A DNA stretch of 64,000 nt from Patescibacteria group bacterium (GCA_038063755.1 JBBTUL010000011.1:71040-135039); one strand, 5' to 3'; shown: positions 6,157 through 60,801, numbered from the stretch's first letter. Notes: generated by a model from the letters alone, not told the origin. A program made the numbers and translations.

Positions 6157-6161
6157 GAATC

Positions 6162-6674: not shown

Positions 6675-6690
6675 ATGGGTATATTAGTTT

Positions 6691-6726: not shown

Positions 6727-6738
6727 GCGGGGACGAAA

Positions 6739-6969
6739 CTATCCCTGGGCTACGCCTGAAGCAGACGGTCCACAGGCCTTGCAGTCGGCTTTATGCGCAA
6801 AAAGCTCATAAACGGCCGAGAGGCCAACGAGAATATAGATTATTCTCGAAACCCATGCCGAAGGGCCTCCGAAGAGATTTCCTATCTCCCACTGGAAAAG
6901 CCCGAAAAGAAGCCAGTTCAATCCACCAACAACAAGGAGGATGAACGTTACCATATGCAATCCTTTCAT
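6739..6969 (-). CDS. DUF378-like small membrane protein
   Basis: Two TM helices with the GGLNWLLFGLF pattern typical of DUF378. Confidence 0.6.
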   Translation of the reverse strand: MKGLHMVTFILLVVGGLNWLLFGLFQWEIGNLFGGPSAWVSRIIYILVGLSAVYELFAHKADCKACGPSASGVAQG

Positions 6970-7235
6970 GTTTTAGCATTTATGTTCGAACACCCGACCT
7001 TTATTCCATTATACCATTCCCTCTTGAGACTAATTGACAAACGGGGATGGTGGTTGCTATGGTTTTAAAAGCTAATCTTTCGCTGTGCGGGAGAAATCAT
7101 GCGAACAGTGATCGAGATGTTCGTCCTGATCGGTGAATTCTATGTTTTTCTCATTAAGTGGTTTTGGAGGCACGTGAAAGAGGAAAGGTTCCAGGCCTGG
7201 TAGACAGCGGCATTTCCGGCATATGGCCGGATTTT

Positions 7236-8006
7236 TTATTTCAAGTAACCAATTTTTTTGAGCCACCATTCATTCTCCCACTCCCAAAGACGCTTCGCGC
7301 CCAAGAAAGCTTCGAAGTCCGATTTCCAAAACGGAAATTCTTGAAGTTCGATTACGCCTTGAACGGCACCCCATTCGTGCGCGCTCGTCGCGCAAACTAC
7401 GCGCGAGCCGTTATTGCGAATCTTCTCGCGTCCTCCTTTTGTTCTTTTCGTCGCTCCGCAAATCTGGCACTTGCTTACTTGATCGATCCTCAGAATCCAG
7501 CGTGTGTGAAGGGTCGGGAACGTTTTTTTAAGCGCTTCGATATATGCGGCGGTTTGCAGATTGTAATCGCGATAAATCGATTGCGATGTTTTAATATCCA
7601 AGATGCCAAACTTCCCGTCGATAACGGCGAGCGCATCCACCGTTCCGGCATAGCGGTGTTCGGGATGCAATATCCTTCGCTCGATATAATCCGGCGCAAC
7701 CTTGATCGGAGTTTTCGCGGCGAATTCGCGAAATGCAGTGACCGCCGGAGCGATGGAGGAGGGGACACTGGGATTGAGTCCTAGGAGCAATTCTTCGACA
7801 ACTTCGTGCACCAACGTTCCTTCTTCCGCCGAGCGATTCGAGACGGCCTTTGCCGCTTCTTCGCTCCCCATCTCTTTGTAGAAGTTATGGAGTCCCGGCT
7901 TTGATTTTATCGAGACGATTCGGGTTACCCGTGGATACCACGCATCCTCGATGGTGTATCCGTTCGAATCCATAAACTCATATTCATCCCGGAAATATTC
8001 TGACAT
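7236..8006 (-). CDS. PD-(D/E)XK nuclease-superfamily protein with an inserted Cys ribbon
   Basis: GTVDALAVIDGKFGILDIKTS gives D...(D/E)xK with Lys in DIK. C-x2-C ...C ribbon (CQICGATKRTKGGREKIRNNGSRVVC). 7-nt gap after murC. Confidence 0.6.
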   Translation of the reverse strand: MSEYFRDEYEFMDSNGYTIEDAWYPRVTRIVSIKSKPGLHNFYKEMGSEEAAKAVSNRSAEEGTLVHEVVEELLLGLNPSVPSSIAPAVTAFREFAAKTPIKVAPDYIERRILHPEHRYAGTVDALAVIDGKFGILDIKTSQSIYRDYNLQTAAYIEALKKTFPTLHTRWILRIDQVSKCQICGATKRTKGGREKIRNNGSRVVCATSAHEWGAVQGVIELQEFPFWKSDFEAFLGAKRLWEWENEWWLKKIGYLK

Positions 8007-8013
8007 AGCGTAG

Positions 8014-9381
8014 TTATTTGAGGAGGCGTTCAGTATAGCTCACAATGTCGCCCGCACCCATCATGATGACCATGATTCTGTGCTTTTTGCCTAAGATCGA
8101 ATCCGTGAATTTCAAAAGTGTTTTCCTTGAAAGGGAATGGGGATCTTCAAGGTAGAGAAGGGGGAGGTGTCTGTTCTTCTTCCCGATGGCGCGTGCCAGA
8201 TCGTTCGCGGTCATGACGCCCCTTTCCTCGTCGCGACCCTTTACCCGATAGGTCGGCAAGAGGATAAGCCCATCCGCTTCGTCGAACGCTCCGACAAACT
8301 CTTTGAATAACTTCTTTAACCGTTCGGCATGGTGTGGTTGGAACACCGGCAGGATAAGGTGGCCGCGGAATTTTTCTCGAAATGCACCGATGGTCGCTCG
8401 GATCTCGGTTGGATGGTGCGCGTAGTCGTCAAACACCGTAAATGCCATACCGCCGGAATGAAACGATCCGCGCCTCTCGTATCTTCTCCAGGCCCCGCGA
8501 TACCGTCCAAGCGAAGCAAGAATATCCCTTTTAGGAATTTCAAGAAGAGCGCCCAGTCTGTAAACCGCAAGCGCGTTTGACGCGTTGTGGATCCCAGGGA
8601 TTTGCAATGTGCGACGGATGGCTGGGGCGATACTGTCATCCATCGAATACCAGACAAGTTGTAGTTTATTTTTCCGCACCAACGTCTCGATCTTTCCCTT
8701 GAGCGAGAATAAGTACTCATTGTCGCGATTCAGGATAAGCGAACCGCCGACTTGCGTTTGCGCAAGGAAGCGCAAGAATGTCTTTTTAATGTCGGCAAGA
8801 TCGCGATAACAATCCAAGTGCTCGCGGTCGATATTCGTTACGATAGCGCAGTACGGCGCGTAATTTAAAAATGCTTTTTTGAACTCGTCGGCTTCAAGCA
8901 CCAGGTAATCTCCGTGGCCGTTTCGGAAGTTTGAGTTTCTAAATTCTTTGAGTTTCGTTCCCACGATAACAGTCGGATCAAGACCTACCGAAGTCAAAAG
9001 AAGCGCCGCAAGAGCCGTCGTGGTGCTTTTCCCATGAGCGCCGGAGACGGTAATTGTCTTGTACTCACGGGTAATCCTCCCCACCATTTCGGGGTAGGAG
9101 AGAACTTCTATTTTCCGCTTCCGAGCCTCAAAAAGCTCTTTATTTTCGGGTTTTATGGCATTCGAATATATGACAAGCCTCGCGGCGGGGGGAACCCCTC
9201 CAGAATGGCCAATTTTGAGCTTTACGCCCTCTTTTACCAAGGAATCGGTGAGTTCACTTCGGGTGGCGTCGGAGCCCGAAACAGCCCATTTTTGGGCCAA
9301 AAACCACCTGGCGAGGGAACTTACCCCGATACCGCCGATGCCTATAAAATGGACCGATTTTCTCGCCTGTCTTTTCGTCAT
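8014..9381 (-). CDS. murC: UDP-N-acetylmuramate--L-alanine ligase
   Basis: FIGIGGIGVSSLARW N-terminus, GTKLKEF, Mur ligase middle and C domains. Confidence 0.9.
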   Translation of the reverse strand: MTKRQARKSVHFIGIGGIGVSSLARWFLAQKWAVSGSDATRSELTDSLVKEGVKLKIGHSGGVPPAARLVIYSNAIKPENKELFEARKRKIEVLSYPEMVGRITREYKTITVSGAHGKSTTTALAALLLTSVGLDPTVIVGTKLKEFRNSNFRNGHGDYLVLEADEFKKAFLNYAPYCAIVTNIDREHLDCYRDLADIKKTFLRFLAQTQVGGSLILNRDNEYLFSLKGKIETLVRKNKLQLVWYSMDDSIAPAIRRTLQIPGIHNASNALAVYRLGALLEIPKRDILASLGRYRGAWRRYERRGSFHSGGMAFTVFDDYAHHPTEIRATIGAFREKFRGHLILPVFQPHHAERLKKLFKEFVGAFDEADGLILLPTYRVKGRDEERGVMTANDLARAIGKKNRHLPLLYLEDPHSLSRKTLLKFTDSILGKKHRIMVIMMGAGDIVSYTERLLK

Positions 9382-11150
9382 GCGATTTCGCTATTGTAGC
9401 AAGATTCACAGTATACAATCTCCGGTCGATCAGGAGCGTATGAGGTCTCGAATTCATTTGGACAGGAATTCGTACCGTGTGGATGTGCAGCTGTGTTTTG
9501 ATAGACACCGCCCTGCGAAGCCGCTCCCACACAGACACACTTTCGATGCCAAAGTTTAAGTGGATTTCTCTGCTTGAGACGCTCGTAGTGACGACAATTT
9601 GGACAAAGGCGAGGGAGCGCCAGTTTTATTTTCCGGTAAAAAGCGAGCTCTTCGGGAATTATCCGGAAGGCCGTAGTGCACTGATCGTTACAGTCTCCTC
9701 CATGGAGGCATCCGATCGTTTCTTTAAGAACTGACTCATCTATATCCTTGATTTGATCTGGAAGATTTTCGGGTTCTTTTGTGATTGTGTATGACTTGGC
9801 GTCGAGGTCTCGCCAGCGGTAGCCCCTTTCAATAGCATCTTTCTTGGTTAACGGGAAATATTCTTGCGAGAGCGCTTCGTTGTACGCGAAAGGGGAGAGC
9901 TCAGGAGGAAAGAACTCACCATATTTATATACACGCCCGCGTGCATCCACATACGGCATAGCATTCATCTGCTCGATGATCTTGGGAACAAGCGCTTCAT
10001 ATTCTTCCTTTGTATATTGCCTGTTCAGAATGCAATATTGTTTACTGCGTAAACCTATGCAGCCAAAAAGATTGCTGGAAGAATGACACCAGTGGCAGTA
10101 TCTCATCTCACGAGCCGCGTCGGAGTCAGTACAGAAGGCAGTTTTGGACGTGCTCCAGCCGGTCACAACAGATTCATAATTTAATTCCTTTCCGGAACTC
10201 CCATAAATATCGTAGCTGTCCTTCAGATTAAATGCCCTCCCGACGAATTTCACGTTTTCAACTTCATGGACACCAAAACCAGATGTAACATTTTTTGAAT
10301 TCCAAATATTGTCTCCGGTACAGTCGGATGCCTTCGTTTGGTTGGAGAATTTATGGAGCGAACCGACGGCTATTTTGCGATATTCTTCTTCCATCTGTCT
10401 GAGAGTTTCATAGCTTCCCAGATTAATTTTTCCGACCTGAGCTTCGTAATCGGTTTTGGTAAGTTGTTTGTTCCTGAAAACATAACTTTTATTTCGTAGA
10501 CCAGAGCTCATAAAGCAGTTTTTGCAGTTTGCGCAATCGAAAAGAAAGCTTGATTCAACACAACCATGAGAATTATGTAGAAAAGCACTTCTGTAGTTGC
10601 CGCTTCCATCTATATTCTCGTAGCAAAGCTCTGACTTTTGGAGGTACAGCACATCAAAGCAATCCTTTAGGTCGGTGATATTGCTCGAATACGCAACGTT
10701 TTCGCTATCGACCGCCGAATAAGCCAAACAAATATTTTTCGTATTCCTCACAAAGTTTGAGAACTCAGCGTTTTCGTTTTGTGAATATTGCACGAGCGCC
10801 ACTTGGGGAACCTTGCTTTCCAATTGAAAGAATTGATCGAGGAACGGCTTGTTTTGGTCGTATTCTTGTTGGTAGGTTAGCGGGTCCCACCCATCCGATA
10901 GCCAGCACGATTTACAATAGATAGGAAATTTCGCGTCGGGAAGATGCATCGAAACTATCTCCTTGGCGCATAGATCGCACTTTCGCTTGCAGAGAGATCT
11001 TTCGTTTCGCCAAGTTAAGCGGCGAATTAGGCGGCACTCCGGACACCAGGTCGGCGGGGGAACGTTGATCTTTCTGTAGAAATCAAAATCTTCGGGTTCG
11101 ATCGTGAACTCTTTATGGCAGTTTTGACAATTTCGAGCTTCTTGATTCAT
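9378..11150 (-). CDS. cysteine-rich zinc-ribbon-flanked ~590-aa family protein, paralog A
   Basis: N-terminus CQNCHKEFTIEPEDFDFYRKINVPPPTWCPECR..RR..RNER. Central FDCANCKNCFMSSGLRNKSY.F.NKQ..K..YE and YCHWCHSSSNLFGCIGLRSKQYCILNRQYTKEEYE modules. C-terminus AFRIIPEELAFYRKIKLALPRLCPNCRH ... PEIVYCESCYN. 4-nt overlaps with both neighbours. Confidence 0.8.
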   Translation of the reverse strand: MNQEARNCQNCHKEFTIEPEDFDFYRKINVPPPTWCPECRLIRRLTWRNERSLCKRKCDLCAKEIVSMHLPDAKFPIYCKSCWLSDGWDPLTYQQEYDQNKPFLDQFFQLESKVPQVALVQYSQNENAEFSNFVRNTKNICLAYSAVDSENVAYSSNITDLKDCFDVLYLQKSELCYENIDGSGNYRSAFLHNSHGCVESSFLFDCANCKNCFMSSGLRNKSYVFRNKQLTKTDYEAQVGKINLGSYETLRQMEEEYRKIAVGSLHKFSNQTKASDCTGDNIWNSKNVTSGFGVHEVENVKFVGRAFNLKDSYDIYGSSGKELNYESVVTGWSTSKTAFCTDSDAAREMRYCHWCHSSSNLFGCIGLRSKQYCILNRQYTKEEYEALVPKIIEQMNAMPYVDARGRVYKYGEFFPPELSPFAYNEALSQEYFPLTKKDAIERGYRWRDLDAKSYTITKEPENLPDQIKDIDESVLKETIGCLHGGDCNDQCTTAFRIIPEELAFYRKIKLALPRLCPNCRHYERLKQRNPLKLWHRKCVCVGAASQGGVYQNTAAHPHGTNSCPNEFETSYAPDRPEIVYCESCYNSEIA

Positions 11151-22492: not shown

Positions 22493-24427
22493 CTACTCTT
22501 CGTCGTGCGTTATCTCAGCTTTATGAAGTGATTCTGCTATTGCCTTTCTCAGGTCTGCAATGTTAACTCCGTCCTTTTTTCTTTCCGCTCTTTGTTTCTC
22601 TGGCACTGACCTTTCCGAAAGATCCTTGAGCGAAAGAGTTTTTTCGGTACTGCTTTGCTGCGATGCCCTTGCTTCTACTTCAATTCTTGGGACAAAAGAT
22701 CTTTTTCTCTGTTGAAACTGAAGCTCCGATCGCTCTGGGCGCTTCGGAAAGTCTTTATTCTGAATTTCCTGCGGAGCTTTTCGAGACACTGCCTCCTCGG
22801 GCTGCTCCGTCCTTTCCTCTGTCGGATGAAGAATCTTTGTTTTTTCTTCACCGCCTCCCTCGAACTCGATCCCGAGACTCGCAAGATCAGCAGAAAACTG
22901 TTTCTGATTAACGCTGACCTTCGGGGAGGAAGATCTCGATGCAGGCATAATTGTCCCCTCTTTTATCCCGGCGAGACATTCTCGGCAGTATACGGGCTTC
23001 CCGGGTATGGGCTCAAAAGGAACGGTTGTTTCTCTCCCGCAAGATGAGCAAATTGCCGAGAAAGACTCTCCGCTTCTCGGAGTGCTCGCTCGCGACATAA
23101 TTGTTTCTCCCTCTCCTCCCCTCGGAACCATTCCGGCCCATCGATTAATTTCGTCCTCAATGACTTCCCGGGGGCGAGCGTATCTTTCCCTTGACTGCTC
23201 AATAATTTCCTGCGCAGTCGATGCGTCCTCTACTCCTTTTATGGGCGGTAATGTTTTCGCGGAAAACGGCCTTGAGGCAACCCCGTCGCATAAAAGTTTC
23301 AAATAAATATGATAGTTCGGAAGGTTTACGATGTCTTGGATAGTAAACTCCGGCTCAAACTCGCTTTCGAGAAACTCCGCATCGGCAGCCCCGACACGAA
23401 AGATGATCATCGTTCCTGCGTTTCCAAAAATTGCGTCTCTTACTTTTGTAGAAACATCCGTAACAAGTTGTCCTATATATTGATGCGCCAGTATCAGATC
23501 AAGTCGATATTTTCTTGCTTCAGATAAAACACTCGCAAATGAATCCGTTGCGAAGTTTTGAAATTCATCGACGTAGAGATAGAAGTCGACGCGCTCGTCC
23601 TCCGGAATACGGACGCGCTCCATCGAGGCAAGTTGAATTTTCGTAATAAGCATCGCTCCCAAAAGCGCGGAGTTATCCTCCCCAATGCGCCCCTTGGAGA
23701 CATTTACCAAAAAAATCTTTCCTTCGTTCATAATGTTAAATATGTCCATCGTGCTTTTCGATTGTCCGACGACGTTTCTCACGATTGCGGTTGAAAGAAA
23801 TTGACCAACCTTGTTTTGAATAGGCGCTATGGCTTCGTTTCTGAACTTGTCTTGCCACGCCTCATACTCGTGAATCCAAAAAGCCTTTACCACTGGATCT
23901 TTAATGTTATTCACAATGGTCTGCCGAAATTCTTTATCGACCAAAATGCGAGTGATACCAAGGAGCGTTGAGCCGGGTGTGTCGAGAAGCGCAAGGATTG
24001 CGTTGTTTAAAATGTATTCCATTCTCGCCGACCAGACATTTGACCAAATTTTCGTAAAAATTCCCATAAGACCTGAAGCAACCAAATGCTTGTATTTCGG
24101 GTCTGGCAGTTCAAGCACATTAAAGCCAATGTGATAATCGATGTCAGCTGGATTGAAATATACGACATCCTTTACGCGCTCCTTCGGGATTTTCGAAAGA
24201 ACTCCCTCAATAAGCTCTCCGTGCGGGTCAACGACACACACGCCTTCGCCGTTTGCGATATCTTGAATAATAAGATTGCTTAAAAAAGCGGACTTTCCGG
24301 TACCGGTCTTTCCGATAACATACATGTGCTGCCTTCGATCGTTTCTTTTGATGCCAAAAATCCGATCGGCGTTACGAAAATCGGTTTTCGCAAAATATAC
24401 GACATCTCTGTCCGGTCTATCAATCAT
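22493..24427 (-). CDS. soluble VirD4/TraD/TraG-like (T4CP-like) P-loop ATPase with C-terminal zinc ribbon and a long charged tail (T4CP-like-1)
   Basis: Walker A HMYVIGKTGTGKS, Walker B FYLYVDEFQNF, and the AHQYIGQL coupling-protein motif. No N-terminal TM. C-terminal ribbon CSSCGRETTVPFEPIPGKPVYCREC, followed by a ~170-aa E/K/R/S-rich low-complexity tail. Confidence 0.75.
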   Translation of the reverse strand: MIDRPDRDVVYFAKTDFRNADRIFGIKRNDRRQHMYVIGKTGTGKSAFLSNLIIQDIANGEGVCVVDPHGELIEGVLSKIPKERVKDVVYFNPADIDYHIGFNVLELPDPKYKHLVASGLMGIFTKIWSNVWSARMEYILNNAILALLDTPGSTLLGITRILVDKEFRQTIVNNIKDPVVKAFWIHEYEAWQDKFRNEAIAPIQNKVGQFLSTAIVRNVVGQSKSTMDIFNIMNEGKIFLVNVSKGRIGEDNSALLGAMLITKIQLASMERVRIPEDERVDFYLYVDEFQNFATDSFASVLSEARKYRLDLILAHQYIGQLVTDVSTKVRDAIFGNAGTMIIFRVGAADAEFLESEFEPEFTIQDIVNLPNYHIYLKLLCDGVASRPFSAKTLPPIKGVEDASTAQEIIEQSRERYARPREVIEDEINRWAGMVPRGGEGETIMSRASTPRSGESFSAICSSCGRETTVPFEPIPGKPVYCRECLAGIKEGTIMPASRSSSPKVSVNQKQFSADLASLGIEFEGGGEEKTKILHPTEERTEQPEEAVSRKAPQEIQNKDFPKRPERSELQFQQRKRSFVPRIEVEARASQQSSTEKTLSLKDLSERSVPEKQRAERKKDGVNIADLRKAIAESLHKAEITHDEE

Positions 24428-24487: not shown

Positions 24488-26263
24488 CTATCGAGTTTCA
24501 GCCAAAAAACACGACTCACAGTAAACAATTGCCTCTTTCTCATTCGAAAATGTGGTCTCGAATGAGTTCTCACACCTCTTGGATCCGTGAGAATGAATTG
24601 TGTTATTTTTATACTTTCCCGACTCTCCTCCTTCGCACATACAAAATCCCTTCTGCCATCGGGGAGGGTTCCTCTTTGCTGTTCGCGCAGAATGCCGACA
24701 AGGAAAACAGCTTCTTGGAAGGGCAAGATTGAAGCGCTTGTAAAAACCAAGTTCTGCGGATGCAATTTGATAGGCTCGCTTGCAGGAAGCGCATCCGATA
24801 ACCTCTTTAAGAATTTCGTCGGATGTGTCGCTGATGTGGTCTGATAGCTCCTCAGCTCGAACCGTTATTTCAAAGTCGCGCAGATTCGGATCCTGCCACC
24901 CGAAACCCGTTTTTAACGCTTCTTCTTTCGCAAGTGGAAGAAGATCAAGCGCCATTGTTTCGTTGTATGCGTATGGGGAAAACTCCGGAGGAAAAAACTC
25001 GCCGTACCCGTAACTCTTCCCCCTGGCATCAACGTACGGCATCTCCTTCATGTGTTTTTTGAGTAGTGAAACCTTCTTCTGATACTCCTCTTTCGAATAC
25101 TGTTTATTAAAAATGCAATACTGCGCGCTTCTAAGGCCAATGCACGCGAAACAGTTCGAGGAAGAGTGACACTCGATACAATATTCAAGCTCGGTACAAC
25201 CAGGCCAGCATTCGATGCAAAATTTCAAGCGGTTTGATTCGTTGCCACAGGTAACGCATTCATATATAAGCTCGGTTGAATCACCCCAATTGGTGAAGTC
25301 GTATGATTCGCTTGTTCCCGCAAGAATGCTTTGGGAATACTTTACGTTCTCTACCCCTATTGCCTCATAGCAGTATTTTGCGTTTTTGGAATTATACACG
25401 TACTCACCAATTACATTTTCATTCTGGGACCCGTGAAAAAACTTCTCGGGAAACTGCTTGTCCATACTCATCATGCGTTCTTTCATCTTCCGAACTACTT
25501 CGTACGAACCGAGGTCAAACTTTTTGATTTCTCGCTCATATTCTTCCTTTGTATATGGCTTGTTGAAAATATAATATTTCTTATGCAGAAGATTCACGCA
25601 ACCAAAGCAGTCCGAACAATCGTCGCATCGTACGAGAAAGGCAGAGTTTTGACACCCTTCACAGTCGTAGGAGAAAAACGTTTTGTAACAACTTGCGACG
25701 AGAGAAACCTCGCTGCAAAGCTCCAGTTTTCCCGATTGGAAAAAATCCACTGAATCCTTCACATCCATAAAGGTAACGCCATAAAGCGAGTTTTCTCCAC
25801 GACCTCCATTGAAGCAAAGATAGCAATTTTTTAGGTCCCCGGACTGATCGCAATAATCGCTGTTTGAGAGTCTGAGGATAGACCGTGAAGCCCGAGGAAC
25901 TTTTTTGATAAACTCCCGGAATTGCGCAAAAAACGGTCTTGAAAGATCGCACTCTTCCCCAAAAGACAGGGGGTCCCATGAGTCAGACCACCACCGAGGA
26001 TGGTCGTAGACTTGAATCGGAGCTGACCTTGGAAAACTCGAAAATATTTCTTCTTTTGTAACGGCATCGACATTCCGAAATAATTGGTGGTCATTTCTGA
26101 AACACATCCTCCTCTGCATTCTGCACTCCGGACACCGCGTCGGTGGTGGAACATCCATCTTCTTGTAGAAATCGAAGTCTTCGGACTCAATAACAAAGTC
26201 CTTGCTGCAGTTTTGACAGACTTGTCCTGAGCTTGCCGAAGGGTTTTTGGTTTCGTGATTCAT
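24488..26263 (-). CDS. cysteine-rich zinc-ribbon-flanked family protein, paralog B
   Basis: CQNCSKDFVIESEDFDFYKKMDVPPPTRCPECR N-ribbon. The second N-ribbon Cys are lost (RNVDAVTKEEIFSSFPRS). Central YCIECHSSSNCFACIGLRSAQYCIFNKQYSKEEY. C-terminus AIVYCESCF. Confidence 0.8.
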   Translation of the reverse strand: MNHETKNPSASSGQVCQNCSKDFVIESEDFDFYKKMDVPPPTRCPECRMQRRMCFRNDHQLFRNVDAVTKEEIFSSFPRSAPIQVYDHPRWWSDSWDPLSFGEECDLSRPFFAQFREFIKKVPRASRSILRLSNSDYCDQSGDLKNCYLCFNGGRGENSLYGVTFMDVKDSVDFFQSGKLELCSEVSLVASCYKTFFSYDCEGCQNSAFLVRCDDCSDCFGCVNLLHKKYYIFNKPYTKEEYEREIKKFDLGSYEVVRKMKERMMSMDKQFPEKFFHGSQNENVIGEYVYNSKNAKYCYEAIGVENVKYSQSILAGTSESYDFTNWGDSTELIYECVTCGNESNRLKFCIECWPGCTELEYCIECHSSSNCFACIGLRSAQYCIFNKQYSKEEYQKKVSLLKKHMKEMPYVDARGKSYGYGEFFPPEFSPYAYNETMALDLLPLAKEEALKTGFGWQDPNLRDFEITVRAEELSDHISDTSDEILKEVIGCASCKRAYQIASAELGFYKRFNLALPRSCFPCRHSARTAKRNPPRWQKGFCMCEGGESGKYKNNTIHSHGSKRCENSFETTFSNEKEAIVYCESCFLAETR

Positions 26264-26290: not shown

Positions 26291-28099
26291 TTACGCCGTC
26301 TCTGCCTGAAAACATCCTTCACAATAAACGATATCGGGAAGCGCCTTGTCATATGGAGACTCGAATGTATTCGTACAGCTTGATGACGATTCGTGGGCTT
26401 GATGCAGGGCGATGTTTTTATAGCCACCATCTAACGACACGTCCCCTCTACACTGACATTCTCGAGTATAGAGCTTTGCCGGAAGACGCTGTTTAATACG
26501 TTCGAAGTGGCGTGAATTGTAACAACGACGAGGGATTGGCAATCCGAACCTTTTATAGAATTCGAGTTCTTGTGGGATGATGCGAAAAACTCCCGTGCAG
26601 TTGTGCAGGATGGCCTCTTCGGAATCTTCATCCCAAGATCGGCATCGGATTGTTTGTCCGAGAAGGTCATCCGTGGCGTCCTCTATGGAATCCGGAACAT
26701 CTTGCCATCGCAGTGTCGCTTCGTGCTTTTTTCCCTCAGGTTTCTTCCATATCAGATGCTGTTCGGCAGCGGCATGTTCGGATAGTGGAAAGTTTTCTTG
26801 CGCGAGCGTGTGGTTATAGGGATAGGGAGAAAATTCCGCCGGGAAAAACTCGCCGTATGGGTACCGTAGCCCATTTGCGTCAACATACGGCATTGTATTC
26901 ATGTGCTCAATAACGCGTTCCCGGAGCGCGAAATACTCTTCCTTCGAATATTGCTTGTTCAAAATACAATACTCTCTCTTCTTAACTCCGGCACATCCGA
27001 AAAGATTTGAGGAATTACTACAATAGAGTGCGTATTCAAGATTCTTGTTTTCGGGCCAGCATTCCCAACAGAAGCGACAGTTATATATCCCCAAGCCACT
27101 TGCGACCGCTTCATAGACCAATTCGGCGTTATCTCCCCAGACGGTATAGTCGTAGCACTGCCTCGTGGGAGGCGTTAGTATGTACTGACAGTAACGACTG
27201 TCTTCAAGGCCAAGCGCAAGATAGCAATTTTCGGCATTTTTTGATTGATAGACATACGATCCCGAAGCATTTACGTTTTTGTTGTTTGCCGCATATTTAT
27301 TCGGAAACTTCAGCCAGAACTCGGCGCTTTTCTTCTTGAACTCTTCGATCTTTCCATAGGAGTTGAGAGCGAATTCCTTTACTCGTCTCTCGTATTCCTC
27401 CTTGGTGTAGGGTTCGTTGAAGATATGATATTTCTTGTTCTTTAAATTCACGCAACCGAAGCAGTCATGGCAACCAATACATTGTTTTGAGAACCACATA
27501 TCGTACGATCCGTTACAGCGCGTTGAAAAAAAGCACTTCGAACAGTCGGCGGAAAACGAAAGCTCGTAGCAGAATTCGCTACTATCCATATGTGAAAAAT
27601 CTATGCAGTTCTTTCCGTTATTAACCCCATTTCCGTACATGCAATCTTCGGCATAATTTCCGTTGAAAACGAGGTAGCAATTTTTAAACCCGGTATAATT
27701 GTTGGAATAGTCACTGTTTGTTCCATACACAACCGAAAGCGAGTAAATCGGCACCGCTTTCCAGAGGTCATAAAGCTGTGCAAGAAACGGCTTTGAAAAA
27801 TCGACCTCGCGCCCGAAAGACATCGGATCGATGGTGTCCCCGAAAAACAATTCATTCTCGACGATTTTTTGGCGGGAATCCGGAGGGAACATTGAAAATA
27901 TTTCCTTGCCCGAAACTTCGCTTTTTCGCTTATATAGGAAGCGCTCGTTTCTAAATGCCATCCTCCGCATCATCCTGCAGGCCGGACACCGCGTCGGTGG
28001 TGGAACATCCATCTTCTTGTAGAAATCGAAATCGACCGGCTCAAGAGCGAAATCCTGGTGACAACTCTCGCAGATGCGGTGTTCTATTGCGTCTGTCAC
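26291..28099 (-). CDS. cysteine-rich zinc-ribbon-flanked family protein, paralog C
   Basis: CESCHQDFALEPVDFDFYKKMDVPPPTRCPACR. Central CIGCHDCFGCVNLKNKKYHIFNEPYTKEEYE and FGCAGVKKREYCILNKQYSKEEY. C-terminus GVFRIIPQELEFYKRFGLPIPRRC ... PDIVYCEGCF. Sits in tandem with B. Confidence 0.8.
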   Translation of the reverse strand: MTDAIEHRICESCHQDFALEPVDFDFYKKMDVPPPTRCPACRMMRRMAFRNERFLYKRKSEVSGKEIFSMFPPDSRQKIVENELFFGDTIDPMSFGREVDFSKPFLAQLYDLWKAVPIYSLSVVYGTNSDYSNNYTGFKNCYLVFNGNYAEDCMYGNGVNNGKNCIDFSHMDSSEFCYELSFSADCSKCFFSTRCNGSYDMWFSKQCIGCHDCFGCVNLKNKKYHIFNEPYTKEEYERRVKEFALNSYGKIEEFKKKSAEFWLKFPNKYAANNKNVNASGSYVYQSKNAENCYLALGLEDSRYCQYILTPPTRQCYDYTVWGDNAELVYEAVASGLGIYNCRFCWECWPENKNLEYALYCSNSSNLFGCAGVKKREYCILNKQYSKEEYFALRERVIEHMNTMPYVDANGLRYPYGEFFPAEFSPYPYNHTLAQENFPLSEHAAAEQHLIWKKPEGKKHEATLRWQDVPDSIEDATDDLLGQTIRCRSWDEDSEEAILHNCTGVFRIIPQELEFYKRFGLPIPRRCYNSRHFERIKQRLPAKLYTRECQCRGDVSLDGGYKNIALHQAHESSSSCTNTFESPYDKALPDIVYCEGCFQAETA

Positions 28100-48860: not shown

Positions 48861-50600
48861 CTATGCGACTTCTGCGTTATAGCATTGCTCGCAGTATACG
48901 ATCTCGGGACGGTCGGGGGCGTAGGAGGTTTCGAATTCGCTTGGGCAGGGAGCGTTTTCGTGGTCGTGCCCTTTCTTGCACATACACCTACGACGCCAAA
49001 GGCGCAATGGTTTATGCAGGTCCATTCGCTCTCCTCTTCTACAGCCGGGGCACAGTCGCGGAATTGGTAAATCCATCTTTCGGTAAAAGCCGAACTCCTG
49101 TTGGGTGGTCTTAAAAGCGAGGGTGCAGTTATGGATGCATCCTTGGCGGTGCTCGCATTCTATAACTTCGCTCAGAATATCGTCGTTGGCCTCCTTGATC
49201 GTAGCCGGCAGATCGCTTGAGGTTTTTGTTGATTGGTACTCTCTTGGTTCCGGCTCGGCCCATCGACAGCCGAACGCCAACGCCTCGTCTTTATGCAGAG
49301 GAAAGTAAAACTGCGTCAGCGATTCGTTATACGCAAACGGGGAAAGTTCGACAGGAAAGAACTCGCCGTACGGGTACACCTGTCCGTTCAATCCAACGTA
49401 TGGATTGTTGCTCATACCCTCAACTATGCTCGCCCGAAGCTCTAAGTACTCGTCTTTGCCGTATTGCTTGTTTAATATGCAATATTGCTTTTTCCGCAGA
49501 CCTACACACCCGAAGAGATCTTGGCTAACACGACAGTAGTCACAATATTGGATTCTCGCACTACTCTCGAACGTGTTTAAAGAAAAATAAATATTGGAAT
49601 CGAGATATCCCACATTAACACCCTCGTATAACAGCGAACACTCCTTGTCCCCTACACCATACATGTCATAGGAATCCTTCGCGTGACTTGCCTGCGCGCA
49701 GTATTTGATATCTTCACAATCTGCGGAGTTGAAACTATGTTTTGCATTCTTGCAGTTAACGAGGTTATCGCCCGAGGAGCCAACGCACTTGATGATATTC
49801 GCATATTTATGAAACGCGGCTTCTTTCATGCGAACATATTCCATACGGAGTTCCCTCTGGGTAGAATAGTCGCTACTAATAGCTTCGAGCCGCTTCCGAT
49901 ACTCTTCTTCGGCAAGCTGTTGGTTACGAAACACAAATTTACCGTTGCGTAAATTGCTGCTCATAAAGCAGTCGGAAGAGTTGCGACAGTCATAAAGGTA
50001 TGAGCTATTCATGCAATCCTTGCAATCAGAAATGAAGACGCACTTCACGCAGCGTTCTGAATCCATAGCCTCGTAAACGCTCTCGGAATTCATAATCACG
50101 ATGGAATCAAGTGTTTCTCTACAGCTCCACGCCCCTTTGGAATACGACACTGTGTCTGAATTCAGCGTTGAGGGTGAAAGATACACGTTTTTAGAAAACC
50201 ACGTGAAATCAGAATAGGGCGAATTCTCGTTTTGATAAGCTTCCAGACTTGGCCTCGGCATGACATCCGAAAGCTCCTTCCACTGAGAGAAAAAAGTCTT
50301 GTTCGAATTGTATTCGAGGCCGTAATCCAATGGATCCCACTTATCAGACCACCAACACTCATTGCAATACACGGGGAATTTAACGCTTTTCGAATAATGA
50401 GAAATGCCCTGTATGCCGCATAACCCACACTGGAACTTATGCATATTGAACTCATTTCGGAAAAGCATTCTTCGCTTCATCCTACACTCCGGGCACCACG
50501 TCGGCGCCGGAACGTCTATCTTTTTGTAGAAATCGAAATCCTCGGATTCGATGGTGAACGCTTGATGACAACTTTGACAATTTTTTGTCTCTTGATTCAT
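48861..50600 (-). CDS. cysteine-rich zinc-ribbon-flanked family protein, paralog D
   Basis: MNQETKNCQSCHQAFTIESEDFDFYKKIDVPAPTWCPECR. Central YCDYCRVSQDLFGCVGLRKKQYCILNKQYGKDEY. C-terminus PEIVYCEQCYNAEVA. Start chosen to match the family N-terminus; the ORF is open to 50621. Confidence 0.8.
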   Translation of the reverse strand: MNQETKNCQSCHQAFTIESEDFDFYKKIDVPAPTWCPECRMKRRMLFRNEFNMHKFQCGLCGIQGISHYSKSVKFPVYCNECWWSDKWDPLDYGLEYNSNKTFFSQWKELSDVMPRPSLEAYQNENSPYSDFTWFSKNVYLSPSTLNSDTVSYSKGAWSCRETLDSIVIMNSESVYEAMDSERCVKCVFISDCKDCMNSSYLYDCRNSSDCFMSSNLRNGKFVFRNQQLAEEEYRKRLEAISSDYSTQRELRMEYVRMKEAAFHKYANIIKCVGSSGDNLVNCKNAKHSFNSADCEDIKYCAQASHAKDSYDMYGVGDKECSLLYEGVNVGYLDSNIYFSLNTFESSARIQYCDYCRVSQDLFGCVGLRKKQYCILNKQYGKDEYLELRASIVEGMSNNPYVGLNGQVYPYGEFFPVELSPFAYNESLTQFYFPLHKDEALAFGCRWAEPEPREYQSTKTSSDLPATIKEANDDILSEVIECEHRQGCIHNCTLAFKTTQQEFGFYRKMDLPIPRLCPGCRRGERMDLHKPLRLWRRRCMCKKGHDHENAPCPSEFETSYAPDRPEIVYCEQCYNAEVA

Positions 50601-50655
50601 GGTCGTGTTTGTCCCGCCCACAGGCGGGATCCTCGATTTTGTCTATTCGCTACGC

Positions 50656-50727
50656 TCATACAAAATCGGGACAGTTCTGGCAGACCCGCCCTGAGCTTGC
50701 CGAAGGGGTTTTTGTTTCGCTCGTCAT
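50656..50727 (-). pseudogene. decayed N-terminal remnant of a further Cys-rich family paralog
   Basis: The minus strand encodes MTSETKTPSASSGRVCQNCPDFV-stop. 17 of 23 residues match the paralog B N-terminus (MNHETKNPSASSGQVCQNCSKDFV). Lies in the 109-nt gap between paralogs E and D. Confidence 0.6.
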
Positions 50728-50730
50728 GGA

Positions 50731-52452
50731 TTATGCAACCTCTGCGTTATGGCAAGATTCACAGTATAGATTCTCTCCGGGAAGCGATGTTTCAAACGCG
50801 TTTCCGCATGGGCTGTCGCCATGCGCGTGAGAAACGCTGTTTTGATAACCGCCCGAGCCAATCGTTCCTCTGCAAGCACATTGGCCTTCGTGGAGGTAAT
50901 TTGGTCCGCGAGCTTGAAATCTCCTGGCATGTCGACAATCTGGACAAAGCCGGGGAAGCGGCACTGAAAGTTTTTTGTAAAACGCAAATTCATCGGGAAT
51001 AATTCGATAATTTTTCTTGCAATCGATGCAGGCAAAAATCTTTTCAACAAGCGATTGATCGGCATCGCCAATCGCATCAGGAATCTCCGCCCAGGAAATC
51101 GTTTCTTTTCCAAATGTGCCGCGCTCGAAATCCTCCCACTTAAAACCAAGCTCGAGCGCCTCTTCCTTTGAGAGCGGAAACTGTTCCATTGCTGCGGATT
51201 CGTTGTAGCCAAACGTGCTGACTGATGCGGGGAAGAATTCGCCGTAATTTCCCGCATCTTTCATAGACGCAACTATCTTCTCGCGCAGTGTTTGATACTC
51301 CTCTTTCGAATATTCGTGGTTAAGAATGCAGTAATCTTTTTTACGAACTCCAACCGATCCAAAACAGTTGTTCGCATTGAAGCAGTAGTAGCAGTATTCC
51401 GTAAACGAACACGTCCAGCACATGCGGCAGCAGATTTGATTCGAGACATCCATTCCGGCGTTCACCGTGTTATACATCATCTCAGCGTTGCGCCCCGTAG
51501 TATCGCAGTCCATACAATCCTTGGCGTTACGCCACACATGGACGTTATACTTACAATCCTCGGCCTCATAACAATGAAAGCAGGATTTGCAATTTTTTGC
51601 GTTTTTTATGTAGTTTCCGCTTGAATTTGGCGCTTGGACAATTTCTGCATACTTTCTCGGTTGGGTTTTCAAAAATTTCTCGAATTTTTCTCTGAACGCT
51701 TCAACGCCGGAATTCGTATCGAGTCGGAAATTCTGCAGCTCCTTTTCATATTCTTCTTTCGAATATGGCTTATTGAAAATGCAGTATTTGGAGTTTCTTA
51801 AATTCACACACCCAACGCAGTTCGACACACCTCGACAGTCAAACAGAAAGGCACTCTCGCGGCAATCATGACATCCTCTGCTCCAGGAAATGCCGTAGCA
51901 GCCATAACAGTCGTCGCTTTCGTACGAAAGCTCGGTTTGGTGTGAAAATGAAACGTCGACAAGATCACGACATTGCTGAATCCAATAACAATGCGTGCAA
52001 TTCTCGTTGTTTGAAGACTCCACGATCATGTAGCAATTCTTGCTGTCTGCGGAAATATTCGTGTATTCCGAATTCGTGCTACGAATGTATACGAGCGCTA
52101 CTTTCGGAACCGAATCCCATACCGCCTTGAACTGTTCCATGAACGGTCTCGATGGCGTGTATGCCCGGCCATAATCAAGTGGATTCCAATCGTCGGAGAA
52201 CCAGCAGTCATGACACCAGACGGTATACGGCTTCTCGGGACTATACATGGAGATCACCACTTTCTTGCATTTGTCGCACGCGCGTCGATAGAAACTCCGT
52301 TCGTTACGGAATGAAAGTCGGTGTCTCGCACGACAGAGAGGACAAAGCTTCGGCGCCAGAACGTCTATCTTTTTATAGAAATCAAAATCTTCCGGTTCGA
52401 TGAAAAAAGGCTTCTTGCATTGTGTGCAGGTTTTCGTCTCCGGCATTGTCAT
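50731..52452 (-). CDS. cysteine-rich zinc-ribbon-flanked family protein, paralog E
   Basis: CTQCKKPFFIEPEDFDFYKKIDVLAPKLCPLCR. Central FDCRGVSNCVGCVNLRNSKYCIFNKPYSKEEYE. C-terminus NYRIIPDEFAFYKKLSVPLPRLCPDCRH ... NLYCESCHNAEVA. Confidence 0.8.
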   Translation of the reverse strand: MTMPETKTCTQCKKPFFIEPEDFDFYKKIDVLAPKLCPLCRARHRLSFRNERSFYRRACDKCKKVVISMYSPEKPYTVWCHDCWFSDDWNPLDYGRAYTPSRPFMEQFKAVWDSVPKVALVYIRSTNSEYTNISADSKNCYMIVESSNNENCTHCYWIQQCRDLVDVSFSHQTELSYESDDCYGCYGISWSRGCHDCRESAFLFDCRGVSNCVGCVNLRNSKYCIFNKPYSKEEYEKELQNFRLDTNSGVEAFREKFEKFLKTQPRKYAEIVQAPNSSGNYIKNAKNCKSCFHCYEAEDCKYNVHVWRNAKDCMDCDTTGRNAEMMYNTVNAGMDVSNQICCRMCWTCSFTEYCYYCFNANNCFGSVGVRKKDYCILNHEYSKEEYQTLREKIVASMKDAGNYGEFFPASVSTFGYNESAAMEQFPLSKEEALELGFKWEDFERGTFGKETISWAEIPDAIGDADQSLVEKIFACIDCKKNYRIIPDEFAFYKKLSVPLPRLCPDCRHARRFQARGPNYLHEGQCACRGTIGSGGYQNSVSHAHGDSPCGNAFETSLPGENLYCESCHNAEVA

Positions 52453-57560: not shown

Positions 57561-59312
57561 CTATGCTACTTCTGCATTGTAGCAACCTTCACAATACACG
57601 ATCTCGGGGCGACCGGGGGCGTAGGAGGTTTTGAATTCTGCGAAGCAAGAAGTATTCCCGTGTGAGTGAGGGATGGTATTTTTGTACACGCCGCTTGTCG
57701 ATTGCGGACCACCACAGTCGCAACTTCGCTTCCATAACCTCGGAGGATTCACTCTTTTAAACCGCGCATAATAGCGACAATTCGGACATAAAACCGGAAG
57801 AGGAACACCAAACCTCCGATAAAGCTGAAGTTCTGCGGGAACGATTCGAAAGGCGGCTGTGCATTTTTCTCCGCACCCACCATCATGACTACAACCGATC
57901 ACCTCATTTACAATGTCATCCTGAACCTCGGTTATCAAGTCAGGAAGCTCTGCGGGCTTCTTCGTTATCGCGTAATTCTTTTTTTCATCATCCTTCCAGC
58001 GCTCTCCATGTCGCAACGCTTCGTCTTTTGAAACGGGAAACCAATCAAGGGCCGCGGATTCGTTGTACGCAAACGGACTAAGCTTGTTCGGAAAAAACTC
58101 GCCATATTCCCCCGTTCGTTTCATATGTTCAGCGATCTTCGCTCTCAATGTCTCAAACTCTTCCTTTGAATATTTTTTATTCAAAATCGCGTAGGAGGCA
58201 TGCTTCAGTCCCGCTGAACCAAACACGTTCGTGCACGAATGACAGTTATTTGAGTACTCCGCATCAACGCATTTCCAGCAAAATACCGTAAACTTATTTC
58301 CCCGAGAGTTATCGGGCGTAACAGATTCATAGCACAACTCCGGGTTTCCGGTGTAAATACAGTCGTACGAATCTTTGGCTCGATCATTTATGACAATGTA
58401 GGATGAATTCTCGATTGGCGAGAAACAGTAAAAGCACTGTTTTGCCGATTTTGCCTCAAGAAGAAAGAACCCCGAGGAGTTGGTTGTTTTGGGGGCGTGT
58501 GTGTACCTTCGCGGAAACTGCAGACTAAATTCACTAAACATTTTTTTGTTCGCTTCGATGCCCGCACGACTTCCGAGATTCAACTTCGCAAGCTCTTTCT
58601 CGTACTCGTCCTTAGCGTACTGTCTGTTAAGGATGCAATATCGCTTGTTTCGCAAACCGACACATAAAACACAGTCAGAGCATCCTCTAAGATCGAACCC
58701 GAACACGCAATTGTTTGAGTCAAAACAAAGTTCACAATATTTGCAGTTATAACACTTATCGCAGTTAATGCTTTCGTACATCAATTCGGAATTATTTACA
58801 TTCCATGCGTCCATAATGTCCTTCGCATGATTCACGATGTACATATAAAGGCCGTTTTCGACGTACCAACCACAAGCCCCAAGATAACAGTTTTTACTAA
58901 ATGCCCAATCGTAGGTATATTCGCAATTCACACTACCAACACCATCGTCGTTCATACTCGATATTGCCGGCACCTTATTCATGAGTTCCTGAAGTTGATC
59001 AAAGAATGGACGTGAAAAATCAAAATCACGCCCATATGAGGCCGGATCCCATCCGTCAGACCACCAGCACCTTACGCAATAGACCGGAAATTCTGTATCG
59101 GGTGGATACATTCCAATCATATCCTTCCTGCACAAATCACACTTGCGGCGATAAAACGTCCGCTCGTTGCGAAATCTTAGCCGACGTTTCAGGCGACACT
59201 CCGGGCACCAGGTCGGATACGGAACGTCTATCTTTTTATAGAAATCGAAATCTTCGGATTCGATCGTGAAATCCTTATGGCAGTTTTGACAAACCTTGAT
59301 TTCACTACTCAT
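57561..59312 (-). CDS. cysteine-rich zinc-ribbon-flanked family protein, paralog F
   Basis: CQNCHKDFTIESEDFDFYKKIDVPYPTWCPECR, then RKCDLCRK...VYCVRCW. Central FGFDLRGCSDCVLCVGLRNKRYCILNRQYAKDEYE. C-terminus AAFRIVPAELQLYRRFGVPLPVLCPNCRY ... PEIVYCEGCYNAEVA. Confidence 0.8.
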   Translation of the reverse strand: MSSEIKVCQNCHKDFTIESEDFDFYKKIDVPYPTWCPECRLKRRLRFRNERTFYRRKCDLCRKDMIGMYPPDTEFPVYCVRCWWSDGWDPASYGRDFDFSRPFFDQLQELMNKVPAISSMNDDGVGSVNCEYTYDWAFSKNCYLGACGWYVENGLYMYIVNHAKDIMDAWNVNNSELMYESINCDKCYNCKYCELCFDSNNCVFGFDLRGCSDCVLCVGLRNKRYCILNRQYAKDEYEKELAKLNLGSRAGIEANKKMFSEFSLQFPRRYTHAPKTTNSSGFFLLEAKSAKQCFYCFSPIENSSYIVINDRAKDSYDCIYTGNPELCYESVTPDNSRGNKFTVFCWKCVDAEYSNNCHSCTNVFGSAGLKHASYAILNKKYSKEEFETLRAKIAEHMKRTGEYGEFFPNKLSPFAYNESAALDWFPVSKDEALRHGERWKDDEKKNYAITKKPAELPDLITEVQDDIVNEVIGCSHDGGCGEKCTAAFRIVPAELQLYRRFGVPLPVLCPNCRYYARFKRVNPPRLWKRSCDCGGPQSTSGVYKNTIPHSHGNTSCFAEFKTSYAPGRPEIVYCEGCYNAEVA

Positions 59313-59352: not shown

Positions 59353-60801
59353 TCAAATAAGCGGCTCCGGAGGAAGATTCGACTGTATCGCCGAATGACC
59401 CTTCCCTTCGATAATTGCCTTTTCCTGCGCACTCCGAATAATAGTCGACTCTTCCTCTGCAATAAGTCGTCGCGCGTCATCAGCCGGAATAGAATATTTT
59501 TCTCGCGACTGAGCAAGGATTTCGGGCTTAAACGAACGATGTGGAGGATCAAGAACGGCCAGCGTTTCGGCAGAGAAAGGATCGTACGACTCTCCATCAA
59601 TCGTCATTTTAATATAAAATTCCCGCATCCCAAGATTGATCATGTCTTTTACGTCGAAGATCGGAGCCATTTCTGGTTTAAGCGTCACGGCATCATCCCC
59701 TCCCACGCGAAAGATCACAATACTCCCTACGTTTCCCAAAACCGCTGCTTGAACGCGCGGCAGGAGCTGTCCCATATATTGGTGCGCAACGGTAAGTGCT
59801 AAGCCGTACTTTCTGGCCTCCGAGAGAATATTCTCGAATGTCTCAGTAACCAAGTTTTGAAACTCGTCGACATAAAGATAAAAATCGTGACGCTCGGATT
59901 CGGGCAAGGCAGCGCGAGCCATACCAGCCTGCTTGATCTTGGTAATGAACATCGAACCGAAAAAACTTGAGTTCTCTTCTCCAAGCCTCCCTTTAGAAAG
60001 ATTGATCAAGATAATCTTCTTTTGCTGAATAAGCTCCTCAAGTTTTATTTTGTTCCCTTTTTGTCCGAAAATATTTCGCAGTGTTGGATCTGAAAGAAAC
60101 TGTCCGAGCTTGTTTACGAGCGGAATAATCGCGTCGGTATCGAACTTTTCGGACCAATCCGCAAATTCGATCGCCCAGAAACGCTTTACCATGTCGTCTT
60201 CGATGTATTCGACGACCTTCTGGCGATAGTTCCGGTCAGTAAGCATAGAAATCATACCTCGCATGGTGGCGTGCGGGTAATCAAGGAGCGCTAAAACCGT
60301 GAATCGAAAAACGTGCTCAAGACGCGGCGTCCAGTTCGCGCCAAACTGTTTTTCCATTACTTCAATCAGGCCCTGAGTGAGCTGATGCTTAAACAATGGA
60401 TCAACATTTGCAAGCGGATTGAAAGATGCCGGAAACGCGTGATCTGATGGGTCTATAACGACTACATCCCCTATCCGATTCTCGGGAATGAAATCAAGCG
60501 TCGCTTCGACAACGTCTCCGTGCGGATCAATGAGGCAAAGACCGTATCCTTGCGCAATGTCTTGGCGCATCATAAGTTCAAGCAGCTTCGTCTTTCCAAC
60601 GCCGCTTTTTCCAATTATGTACATATGACGTCGCCGATCTTTCCGTTTGATGCCAAAAATGAAACGTTTCTCTTCAAGCGCCGCAACGTAATTCGTTCTT
60701 CCGATAAAAGAAACTTCGCTCGTGTCTACTTTGCCGTATATCGGCAAATCCGTCGGGGGCGGAGCATATTTGATTATCTGTATTCGATTCGCCTTTGGCA
60801 T
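59353..60801 (-). CDS. soluble VirD4/TraD/TraG-like (T4CP-like) P-loop ATPase (T4CP-like-2)
   Basis: HMYIIGKSGVGKT Walker A, FYLYVDEFQNL Walker B, AHQYMGQLL. The N-terminal region is alignable with T4CP-like-1 (FGIKR.DRR.HMY.IGK). ATGA start/stop overlap with the upstream gene. Confidence 0.75.
   Translation of the reverse strand: MPKANRIQIIKYAPPPTDLPIYGKVDTSEVSFIGRTNYVAALEEKRFIFGIKRKDRRRHMYIIGKSGVGKTKLLELMMRQDIAQGYGLCLIDPHGDVVEATLDFIPENRIGDVVVIDPSDHAFPASFNPLANVDPLFKHQLTQGLIEVMEKQFGANWTPRLEHVFRFTVLALLDYPHATMRGMISMLTDRNYRQKVVEYIEDDMVKRFWAIEFADWSEKFDTDAIIPLVNKLGQFLSDPTLRNIFGQKGNKIKLEELIQQKKIILINLSKGRLGEENSSFFGSMFITKIKQAGMARAALPESERHDFYLYVDEFQNLVTETFENILSEARKYGLALTVAHQYMGQLLPRVQAAVLGNVGSIVIFRVGGDDAVTLKPEMAPIFDVKDMINLGMREFYIKMTIDGESYDPFSAETLAVLDPPHRSFKPEILAQSREKYSIPADDARRLIAEEESTIIRSAQEKAIIEGKGHSAIQSNLPPEPLI

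Follow-up and report, generated by a model that had tools for sequence, protein, structure and literature searches.

How does a short spacer between two genes come to begin like a third gene? This question is raised by positions 50,601 to 50,730 of a 64,000-nucleotide (nt) stretch of DNA from a Patescibacteria group bacterium (GCA_038063755.1, JBBTUL010000011.1:71040-135039), which is called the window throughout. The window encodes six members of a zinc-ribbon protein family of ~580 amino acids (aa), paralogs A to F, all on the minus strand. The spacer between paralogs E and D, 109 nt in length, contains a short open reading frame (ORF) that resembles the N terminus of paralog B. The original prediction explained this fragment as the decayed stump of a full paralog that once lay between E and D. 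The comparative data agree better with the alternative that it also named, in which the fragment is a leader or upstream ORF of D. We propose, with about even confidence, that the E–D spacer is one copy of a recurring cassette, which consists of a duplicate of a gene's 5' end, a double hairpin, and an A-rich tail, which originated by insertion, and which serves as a cis-acting upstream-ORF/hairpin leader.

The cassette in the spacer and in other genomes

Paralog E (50731-52452, minus strand) ends with a TAA stop codon at 50731..50733, and the short ORF starts 3 nt (TCC) downstream of it. The short ORF occupies 50656..50727 on the minus strand, reads MTSETKTPSASSGRVCQNCPDFV followed by TGA, comprises 23 codons, and corresponds to the previously described decayed N terminus. 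Its first part, at 50674..50727 (minus strand), is a family-type 5' end (ATG..ETK..CQN) and is referred to here as the left repeat, since it lies to the left of a conserved double-hairpin element. The 64-nt core of this element (50610..50673, minus strand) has the order TGTCCCGAT-hairpin 1-ATCGAGGATCC-hairpin 2-CGGGACA and is matched by a covariance model with 59.9 bits (E 4e-13). Hairpin 1 (50629..50672, minus strand) has a 13-bp stem with one bulged A, and the short ORF supplies its 5' arm, in that the final codons of the fragment, PDFV (TGT CCC GAT TTT GT), pair with ACAAAATCGAGGAT at 50642-50629. Hairpin 2 (50612..50629, minus strand) is UCCCGCC-UGUG-GGCGGGA. This is the GC hairpin that had been placed between the remnant and D; the hairpin itself is real (50629-50612), but it is one half of the double-hairpin element. 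The last five codons of the ORF and the GC hairpin are both parts of this element. An A-rich tail, AACACGACC, at 50601..50609 (minus strand) connects the element with the start codon of D. In public records, D (48861-50600, minus strand) starts either at GTG 50621, inside hairpin 2 (586 aa), or at ATG 50600 (579 aa, NCBI), and the family alignment favours ATG 50600.

Four independent assemblies from the same Hainich groundwater population, one of them an NCBI metagenome-assembled genome, agree in every base of the spacer, and the short-ORF fragment is therefore not an assembly artefact. A longer version of the fragment was not found in these four assemblies of one population. No match to an exact 37-mer of the spacer was present in GTDB representative genomes, and exact look-ups of E, D, and P0121 returned nothing on record.

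Counterparts of the fragment were discovered by searching a profile of the family N terminus against the six-frame translation of all fetched loci and then reading the short N-terminal ORFs. Several short ORFs in other genomes end as the fragment in the window does (...TGY CAR AAY TGT CCC G...). The junction of CQNC codons with TCCCG occurs at eight distinct family loci, which represent several subfamilies and at least seven other contigs of the candidate phyla radiation (CPR), with an intact paralog downstream. The conserved order is TGTCCCGAT, a variable hairpin, ATCGAGGATCC, a second variable hairpin, and CGGGACAAAA, followed by 7-13 nt and the ATG of a full-length paralog. The element measures 54-134 nt, with UCC(N)CG...CG(N)GGA as the closing stem of each hairpin and GGAUCC as the joint between them.

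A covariance model (R1) was built from five copies and searched over the fetched loci. The best match was L003 13780 (81 bits), followed by L135 2916 (74.6), L104 2909 (73.5), L061 3904 (67.5), the window copy with the score given above, L135 7459 (42.2), L021 1061 (41, and 41.8 on the opposite strand), L108 2922 (22.2), L026 5798 (21.4), and L044 2083 (21.3). The element is known at about 10 loci of unrelated CPR contigs, where it precedes eight family paralogs, a transketolase-like gene, and a gene for tRNA-Trp, and the distance from its end to the gene start, equivalent to the A-rich tail of the window, is 7-13 nt in 8/10 copies. One copy is present in the 64-kb window and two in the 7.8 kb of L135. 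A scan of the window and the fetched loci with the covariance model gave no copy away from a gene start. The point at which the fragment breaks off, formerly read as a truncation, coincides with the left boundary of the conserved element, and this junction recurs at about 10 loci elsewhere. The same cassette stands at intact paralogs, the transketolase-like gene, and tRNA-Trp, and the reading as a stump of a deleted paralog is not supported.

The element appears to be undescribed so far. In Rfam 15, no family matches it, and the best covariance-model matches have E values of 3-7, far below gathering scores; in the literature, no description of the protein family or the element was found. A first pattern scan of viral contigs was discarded, as its 21 matches were all due to chance in GC-rich phage DNA without hairpins. 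A stricter pattern yielded one plausible copy and one chance match inside a coding region. An AT-rich IMG/VR contig carries a double-hairpin copy at L196 14503-14552 (minus strand). Judged by eye from the sequence, the ~35 nt directly after this copy, TCCCGCACC...CGTCGGGA, resemble a third hairpin with the same closing stem.

The structure of the element has been predicted by folding and covariation. All nine folded cores form two adjacent hairpins, with L026 as a closing-helix variant, and their z-scores range from -4.8 to -7.1; for each of them, 0/200 shuffles were as stable. The window core is the weakest of the nine (z = -4.8). The signal is seen only with the element core alone, and the whole 151-nt spacer gave a weak z of -1.0. 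Because the variable hairpins were misaligned by MAFFT, a hand-made alignment was used instead. Across eight sequences, 98.9% of 189 cells are standard pairs and 18/33 pairs are changed on both sides, a level that 0/500 shuffles reached. The covariation score is 0.301, compared with at most 0.069 when the partners were slid. The only two unpaired cells of the alignment are located in the apical stem of hairpin 1 in the window, a stretch that also carries both in-frame stops (TGA, TAG). A compensatory stem change is found among copies with a common leader module (GCGATTCC/GGAATCG versus GCGACCCC/GGGGTCG). In an alternative pairing, the 5' (U)UGUCCCG joins the 3' CGGGACA(A), as in the L026 fold. 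The conserved stem bases are the same in the two-hairpin and closing-helix folds, and covariation is therefore no guide between them.

The left repeat is best understood from copies in which its source can be traced. In L135b, L021, and L061, it extends from the first nucleotide of the downstream gene, over 28-38 nt, to the left edge of the element. The element at 7459-7610 in L135 precedes the transketolase-like gene, which starts with MINPEAKLN, and the ORF running into the element reads MLNPDLKLN; 22/28 nt of this duplicate are identical, and 1/2000 shuffles reach the score. In L021, the element is located 13 nt upstream of tRNA-Trp. The 32 nt to the left of this element are colinear with positions 2-33 of tRNA-Trp (22/32 identical; 1/2000 shuffles reach the score), so that the duplicate ends in the anticodon loop. 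The short ORF in L061, MKYESKTITCQNC, copies the atypical start of its own gene, MEYKSQNVVCQNC. On these alignments, the "N-terminal remnant" is a component of the cassette. No short (2-10 bp) direct repeat was seen at the element, which has the diverged 28-38 nt 5' duplicate instead. Approximately 50 nt upstream of the partial tRNA-Trp duplicate, at L021 1002-1013, there is also an exact 12-mer, TCCAAAACCGCT, which is identical to the anticodon loop and 3' stem and may reflect repeated partial duplication at this tRNA gene.

The coding capacity of the left repeat continues into the hairpins. In 8/8 family copies, the 5' arm of hairpin 1 is formed by the codons TGT CCC GAT... The short ORF remains open through both hairpins in six of these eight copies, where its stop lies from 16 nt upstream to 11 nt downstream of the main ATG, and in two of the six the stop overlaps the main start as ATGA. 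The exceptions, in which the short ORF has decayed, are the window and L108. Carrying two premature stops (TGA, TAG) and two broken pairs in the apical stem, the window copy looks partly degenerate, and in that narrower sense the word "decayed" is apt.

Translation signals in the window provide the context for this arrangement. Among 41 genes (the long ORFs of the window), a Shine–Dalgarno (SD)-like 4-mer is present at -16..-7 in three, and a TAnWWT (-10-like) hexamer is present at -18..-11 in 12, compared with 3% of random positions. This pattern suggests leaderless or coupled initiation, with many of the mRNAs leaderless. Two further candidate mechanisms were dropped. One was a split SD, in which GAGGA in the junction is brought near the ATG by hairpin 2, and it was abandoned because SD motifs occur in only 3/41 genes. 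The other was translational bypass from the Cys codon of the short ORF to that of D, which was abandoned because D has its own complete start.

The B-like start and recombination among paralogs

The likeness of the fragment to paralog B (24488-26263, minus strand), which is located 25 kb away, is real. Aligned with the start of B (26192..26263, minus strand, from 26263 downward), the fragment is identical in 53/69 nt with one 3-nt gap. At the protein level, the count of 17 of 23 matching residues given previously becomes 18/23 when a one-residue gap is allowed. An exact copy of the 17-mer CCTTCGGCAAGCTCAGG stands at both 50706-50690 and 26242-26226, and a third site was not found in the window with up to 3 mismatches allowed (0.09 expected). 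For the 54-nt B-like part, the best local score elsewhere in the window is 57, whereas shuffles score 24.7 +/- 2.8 with a maximum of 34, and among 364 collected family proteins the best match to the fragment is B. Both sequences contain the same unusual insert of eight codons (24 nt, in frame, PSASSGRV), which lies at 50683..50706 (minus strand) in the spacer and is common to B at 21/24 nt, 17 of them contiguous and exact. Because of this insert, the left repeat in the window, at 56 nt, is longer than in the copies with a traceable source. Outside the insert, the identity of the left repeat to the starts of both D and B amounts to 64-73%, and a hand count from the codon print-out gave 24/33 nt to B and 21/33 to D. 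As the fragment is almost equally near to both there, the B-specific signal is the insert itself.

The insert represents a short motif, CCCTTCGRCARGCTCAGGRC, further copies of which are dispersed in CPR contigs. It is found in frame in the C-terminal loops of two L084 paralogs (2166, 5589), just after a D ortholog in L005 (9790, minus strand), at L037 302, and in degenerate form in L003 J4 (11564). Inserts of 8-9 residues that resemble it occur at the same N-terminal position in scattered family members. On this sequence comparison, two routes could account for the B-likeness: gene conversion with a B-type start as the donor, or entry of this motif at one and the same hot spot in both genes. 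The motif also has a wider distribution. Its copies in the window are at 50706-50683 and 26242-26219, it reads PSASSGQ, LRQAQGK, or PFGKLRA depending on the frame, and it is inserted in frame at differing sites of family genes and present in intergenic DNA of unrelated CPR contigs, at a frequency far above chance.

The original prediction also proposed recombination among family members and a family size in flux, and independent evidence bears out the recombination. Paralogs C (26291-28099, minus strand) and B have 44% protein identity, yet they share an exact run of 49 nt in the N-terminal block (28030-27982 and 26176-26128, minus strand). In the sibling Hainich assembly L010 (4x coverage), a single C/B chimera is found at 6001-7758, with the crossover inside the 49-nt run. 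The chimera may reflect a genuine unequal crossover or, given the 49-nt repeat and the low coverage, a collapse in assembly. Paralog D is a mosaic. Its first ~25 codons (50600-50525) have 38-42/51 nt in common with A (9378-11150, minus strand), F (57561-59312, minus strand), and J5, and 29-37/51 with any D ortholog, whereas its next 43 codons have the reverse pattern and are nearer to D orthologs. The L003-J5 and L135 genes have a common leader and first ~50 residues, yet they are only 46% identical overall. Leader and first codons would thus constitute a module that is swapped between paralog bodies, presumably via the conserved EDFDFYKK... block.

The cassette is absent in six orthologs of D (65-70% identical), and neither a B-like gene nor such a fragment was found upstream of any of the six. 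Two are preceded by non-family genes, and three by a paralog, either immediately or after a spacer that bears an SD; upstream of the sixth (L003 J2) there is a different stump, of 21 codons, with a different hairpin. A metagenome scan with D orthologs yielded one true D ortholog among the matches listed. From this distribution, the cassette was acquired by D and is not ancestral to it. Among 80 loci with E orthologs, most are tandem arrays with junctions of 0-10 nt or overlapping genes, and each genome examined has its own array composition.

The family itself is very large. Queries B, D, and E each gave >5,500 protein matches among the candidates scored (E <= 1e-20 or 1e-30). The source names shown are CPR/Patescibacteria or generic, apart from two stray bins, and nearly all matches are annotated as "hypothetical". 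Pfam gave only a weak, sub-threshold match of the family to zf_Tbcl (treble-clef zinc finger), and neither NCBIfam nor sequence searches of PDB were informative. Identity among the paralogs of one genome is 35-45%, and orthologous groups can be recognised between genomes. N-terminal pieces without the double-hairpin element exist as well: a 21-codon stump with a different hairpin upstream of a D ortholog (L003 7885-7950), a 43-codon family stump between array members (L041 7382-7510), and two pieces in a frame other than that of the adjoining full-length ORF (L084 5747-5893, L012 2983-3075), which may be frameshifted gene starts. Genes for VirD4/TraG-like coupling proteins adjoin family members in the window (22493-24427, 59353-60801), in L001 (11782-13683), and in L003 (4661-6109). 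This adjacency is kept across genomes, a zf_Tbcl_2 zinc finger is present in window 22493-24427 and L001 11782-13683, and the neighbourhood hints at a functional tie of the paralog family to type IV secretion.

Proposed origin and possible function of the cassette

In the explanation that we favour, a small palindromic element would have entered a transcription unit at its 5' end, this end becoming duplicated, and the cassette would then have spread among paralogs by recombination through the conserved N-terminal block. It would now act in cis on RNA. Ribosomes may start on the short ORF, either because the transcript is leaderless or by re-initiation after the upstream gene, which in the window ends 3 nt before it. 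Having melted hairpin 1, they would go on translating as far as the main start codon, where termination and a new initiation would follow, and the hairpins would gate or tune the coupling between the short ORF and the main gene. The 5' part of the window copy may have been made B-like by gene conversion or by gain of the same 24-nt motif.

Several points weigh against this explanation. The short ORF of the window stops 53 nt before the ATG of D, so the proposed coupling cannot work in this copy, and the L021 copy is located upstream of a tRNA gene, so it cannot act through translation there. The open frame is only suggestive, since in short copies the two remaining frames are often free of stops as well. 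The left repeats are 26-40% diverged from their genes, and a simple recent target-site duplication is therefore unlikely. The structural alignment was segmented by hand, padded with N, and fitted to the structure, so the pair counts lean towards it; moreover, the hairpins are predicted as RNA structures, and folding of single-stranded DNA may be the alternative. Finally, the approximately 10 copies come from 1.4 Mb of DNA that was chosen for holding this gene family, which is a biased sample.

Known systems resemble the cassette in part. Leader-peptide attenuators and coupled leaders, such as those of ermC, trp, and pheST, likewise have a short ORF upstream, the 3' codons of which form the 5' arm of a conserved hairpin, so that ribosome movement would remodel the structure; in six of the eight family copies, the short ORF ends at or next to the main start codon. 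The element differs from them in that its short ORF duplicates the first codons of the regulated gene itself, in that it also precedes a tRNA gene, and in that no terminator U tract, no SD to sequester, no regulatory codons, and no Rfam match are evident. Correia elements of Neisseria, enterobacterial repetitive intergenic consensus (ERIC) sequences, and repetitive extragenic palindromic (REP) sequences or bacterial interspersed mosaic elements (BIME) are similarly short (54-134 nt here), have inverted-repeat ends and hairpins, lie near gene starts, and could alter the expression or processing of the adjacent transcript. Unlike these, the element has a low copy number, a fixed orientation and distance to the downstream start, a diverged 5' duplicate of ~30 nt rather than a target duplication of 2-10 bp, and two tandem hairpins with identical closing stems and a GGATCC joint. 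In common with integron attC and other folded att sites, structure is kept over sequence, with a fixed stem base, a constant extrahelical base, and a variable apex of 4 to about 100 nt, and there is an association with arrays of promoterless-looking genes. However, attC is found at the 3' end of each cassette, next to intI/attI, whereas the element is 5' of genes, at only some array members, and has two hairpins each. We know of no integron reported in this bacterial group and of no integrase here. Integrative elements that target tRNA genes resemble L021, where a partial tRNA-Trp copy that ends in the anticodon loop is on one side and an intact tRNA on the other. L021 differs from them in that the 5' half is duplicated (from nucleotide 1-2), the "element" is ~90 nt, and there is no integrase, and the cassette in general differs in that the same layout is found at protein-coding genes.

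Part of the favoured explanation is retained if the element is a selfish miniature palindromic insertion, akin to miniature inverted-repeat transposable elements (MITE) or REP, that enters the first ~30 nt of transcription units and has no present host function, the 5' duplicate being a by-product and the intact gene copy being regenerated. This account, which we consider rather unlikely, fits the origin step and denies the regulatory role. It is consistent with the terminal inverted repeats TGTCCCG(AT)...(AT)CGGGACA, whose near two-fold symmetry gives matches on both strands, with the unrelated neighbours (family paralogs, transketolase-like gene, tRNA-Trp), with two copies within 5 kb in L135, with the further variant followed by an apparent third hairpin in the AT-rich IMG/VR contig, and with the decay of the short ORF in the window and L108. 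A mobile sequence is less easily reconciled with a single copy in 64 kb and none away from a gene start, or with a constant orientation and a 7-13 nt distance to the start in 8/10 copies. The compensatory stem changes would be needless for an immobile relic, and neither a short target-site duplication nor a transposase was seen, although no search for the latter was made. The double hairpin may alternatively be an RNA-processing module, a target for an endonuclease of the RNase III type or for a cut in the single-stranded ACA 3' of hairpin 2, which would create a new 5' end a few nt before the start codon or tRNA, so that genes at internal positions or with long leaders would yield near-leaderless mRNAs. 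We regard this as improbable, although no other reading accommodates mRNA and tRNA contexts alike. A double-strand RNase could plausibly act on the long perfect stems, the tail from GGGAC to the gene start is 7-13 nt in 8/10 copies, and the genome has few SD motifs and has promoter-like boxes that adjoin start codons. The cleavage is putative, however, translation of the leaderless mRNA after cleavage is itself an assumption, and the keeping of the short ORF and its frame would be left unaccounted for.

The remaining explanations are much weaker candidates. That the bulged hairpins are folded-strand recombinase substrates, comparable to integron attC or folded phage att sites, which move paralogs in and out of arrays, is very unlikely in our estimation. 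The conserved stem bases, constant extrahelical base, and highly variable tips do recall the architecture of attC, paralog arrays differ in every genome, and the tRNA-Trp junction falls in the anticodon loop, a classic crossover site of integrases. The elements are nevertheless 5' of genes and not between every array pair, most junctions being 0-10 nt or overlapping; the segment inserted at the tRNA is only ~90 nt; and no recombinase gene was identified, intI not having been searched for. The idea of a one-off pseudogene stump, that is, deletion of a B-like paralog between E and D save for its first ~70 nt, with the hairpin as an unrelated spacer or terminator, draws on the high similarity to B, rare insert included. 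It also draws on the array layout, since E orthologs commonly have the next paralog within 0-10 nt and a gene start 3 nt past the stop of E would be normal, and on the true N-terminal stumps in L003 and L041. We judge it highly improbable. The truncation point is the exact boundary of an element conserved in other genomes, to which the DFV codons belong, and the sequence from that point to the ATG of D is homologous to the leaders of other paralogs; TGTCCCGATTTTGT, ACAAAATCGAGGATCC, and 10/17 loop bases are common to L003 13780. In addition, outside the insert the fragment is no nearer to B than to D by the counts given above, and the insert is a dispersed motif. An intrinsic terminator or insulator for gene E is the least credible of all. 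A strong GC hairpin does lie downstream of E and is the top terminator-like site of the scan, but on the plus strand. On the coding (minus) strand, ACAAACACGACC follows the hairpins in place of a U tract; the T run lies opposite, on the plus strand, which has no gene end there, and the element also occurs without a nearby upstream gene end, for example in L135 after a promoter-like TTATAAT.

A bolder form of the upstream-ORF/hairpin leader favoured here is unlikely. In this form, a previously undescribed CPR element would enter the transcription units of both mRNA and tRNA genes exactly at their 5' ends and leave a duplicate of ~30 nt from +1, which would suggest guidance by the transcription start or by the 5' end of the RNA. 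In genomes that have no SD motifs and are largely leaderless, the leaderless short ORF and double hairpin would then provide the displaced gene with ribosomes or with a processed 5' end.

The genomes of CPR/Patescibacteria are tiny and contain very little non-coding DNA, few regulatory RNAs are known from them, and their SD-less initiation is poorly understood. In the cassette, a conserved structured element is tied to gene starts and combined with a copy of the 5' end of the gene itself, and this arrangement is seen at members of an mRNA family, at one metabolic gene, and at a tRNA. Where short "remnants" of gene starts lie between paralogs, they should be compared across genomes before they are called deletion scars. 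If the cassette is mobile, the ~30-nt duplication from +1 would imply an unusual mechanism of insertion. If it is regulatory, it would represent a new type of leader for a very large uncharacterised paralog family, which is often arrayed and located beside VirD4-like coupling proteins.
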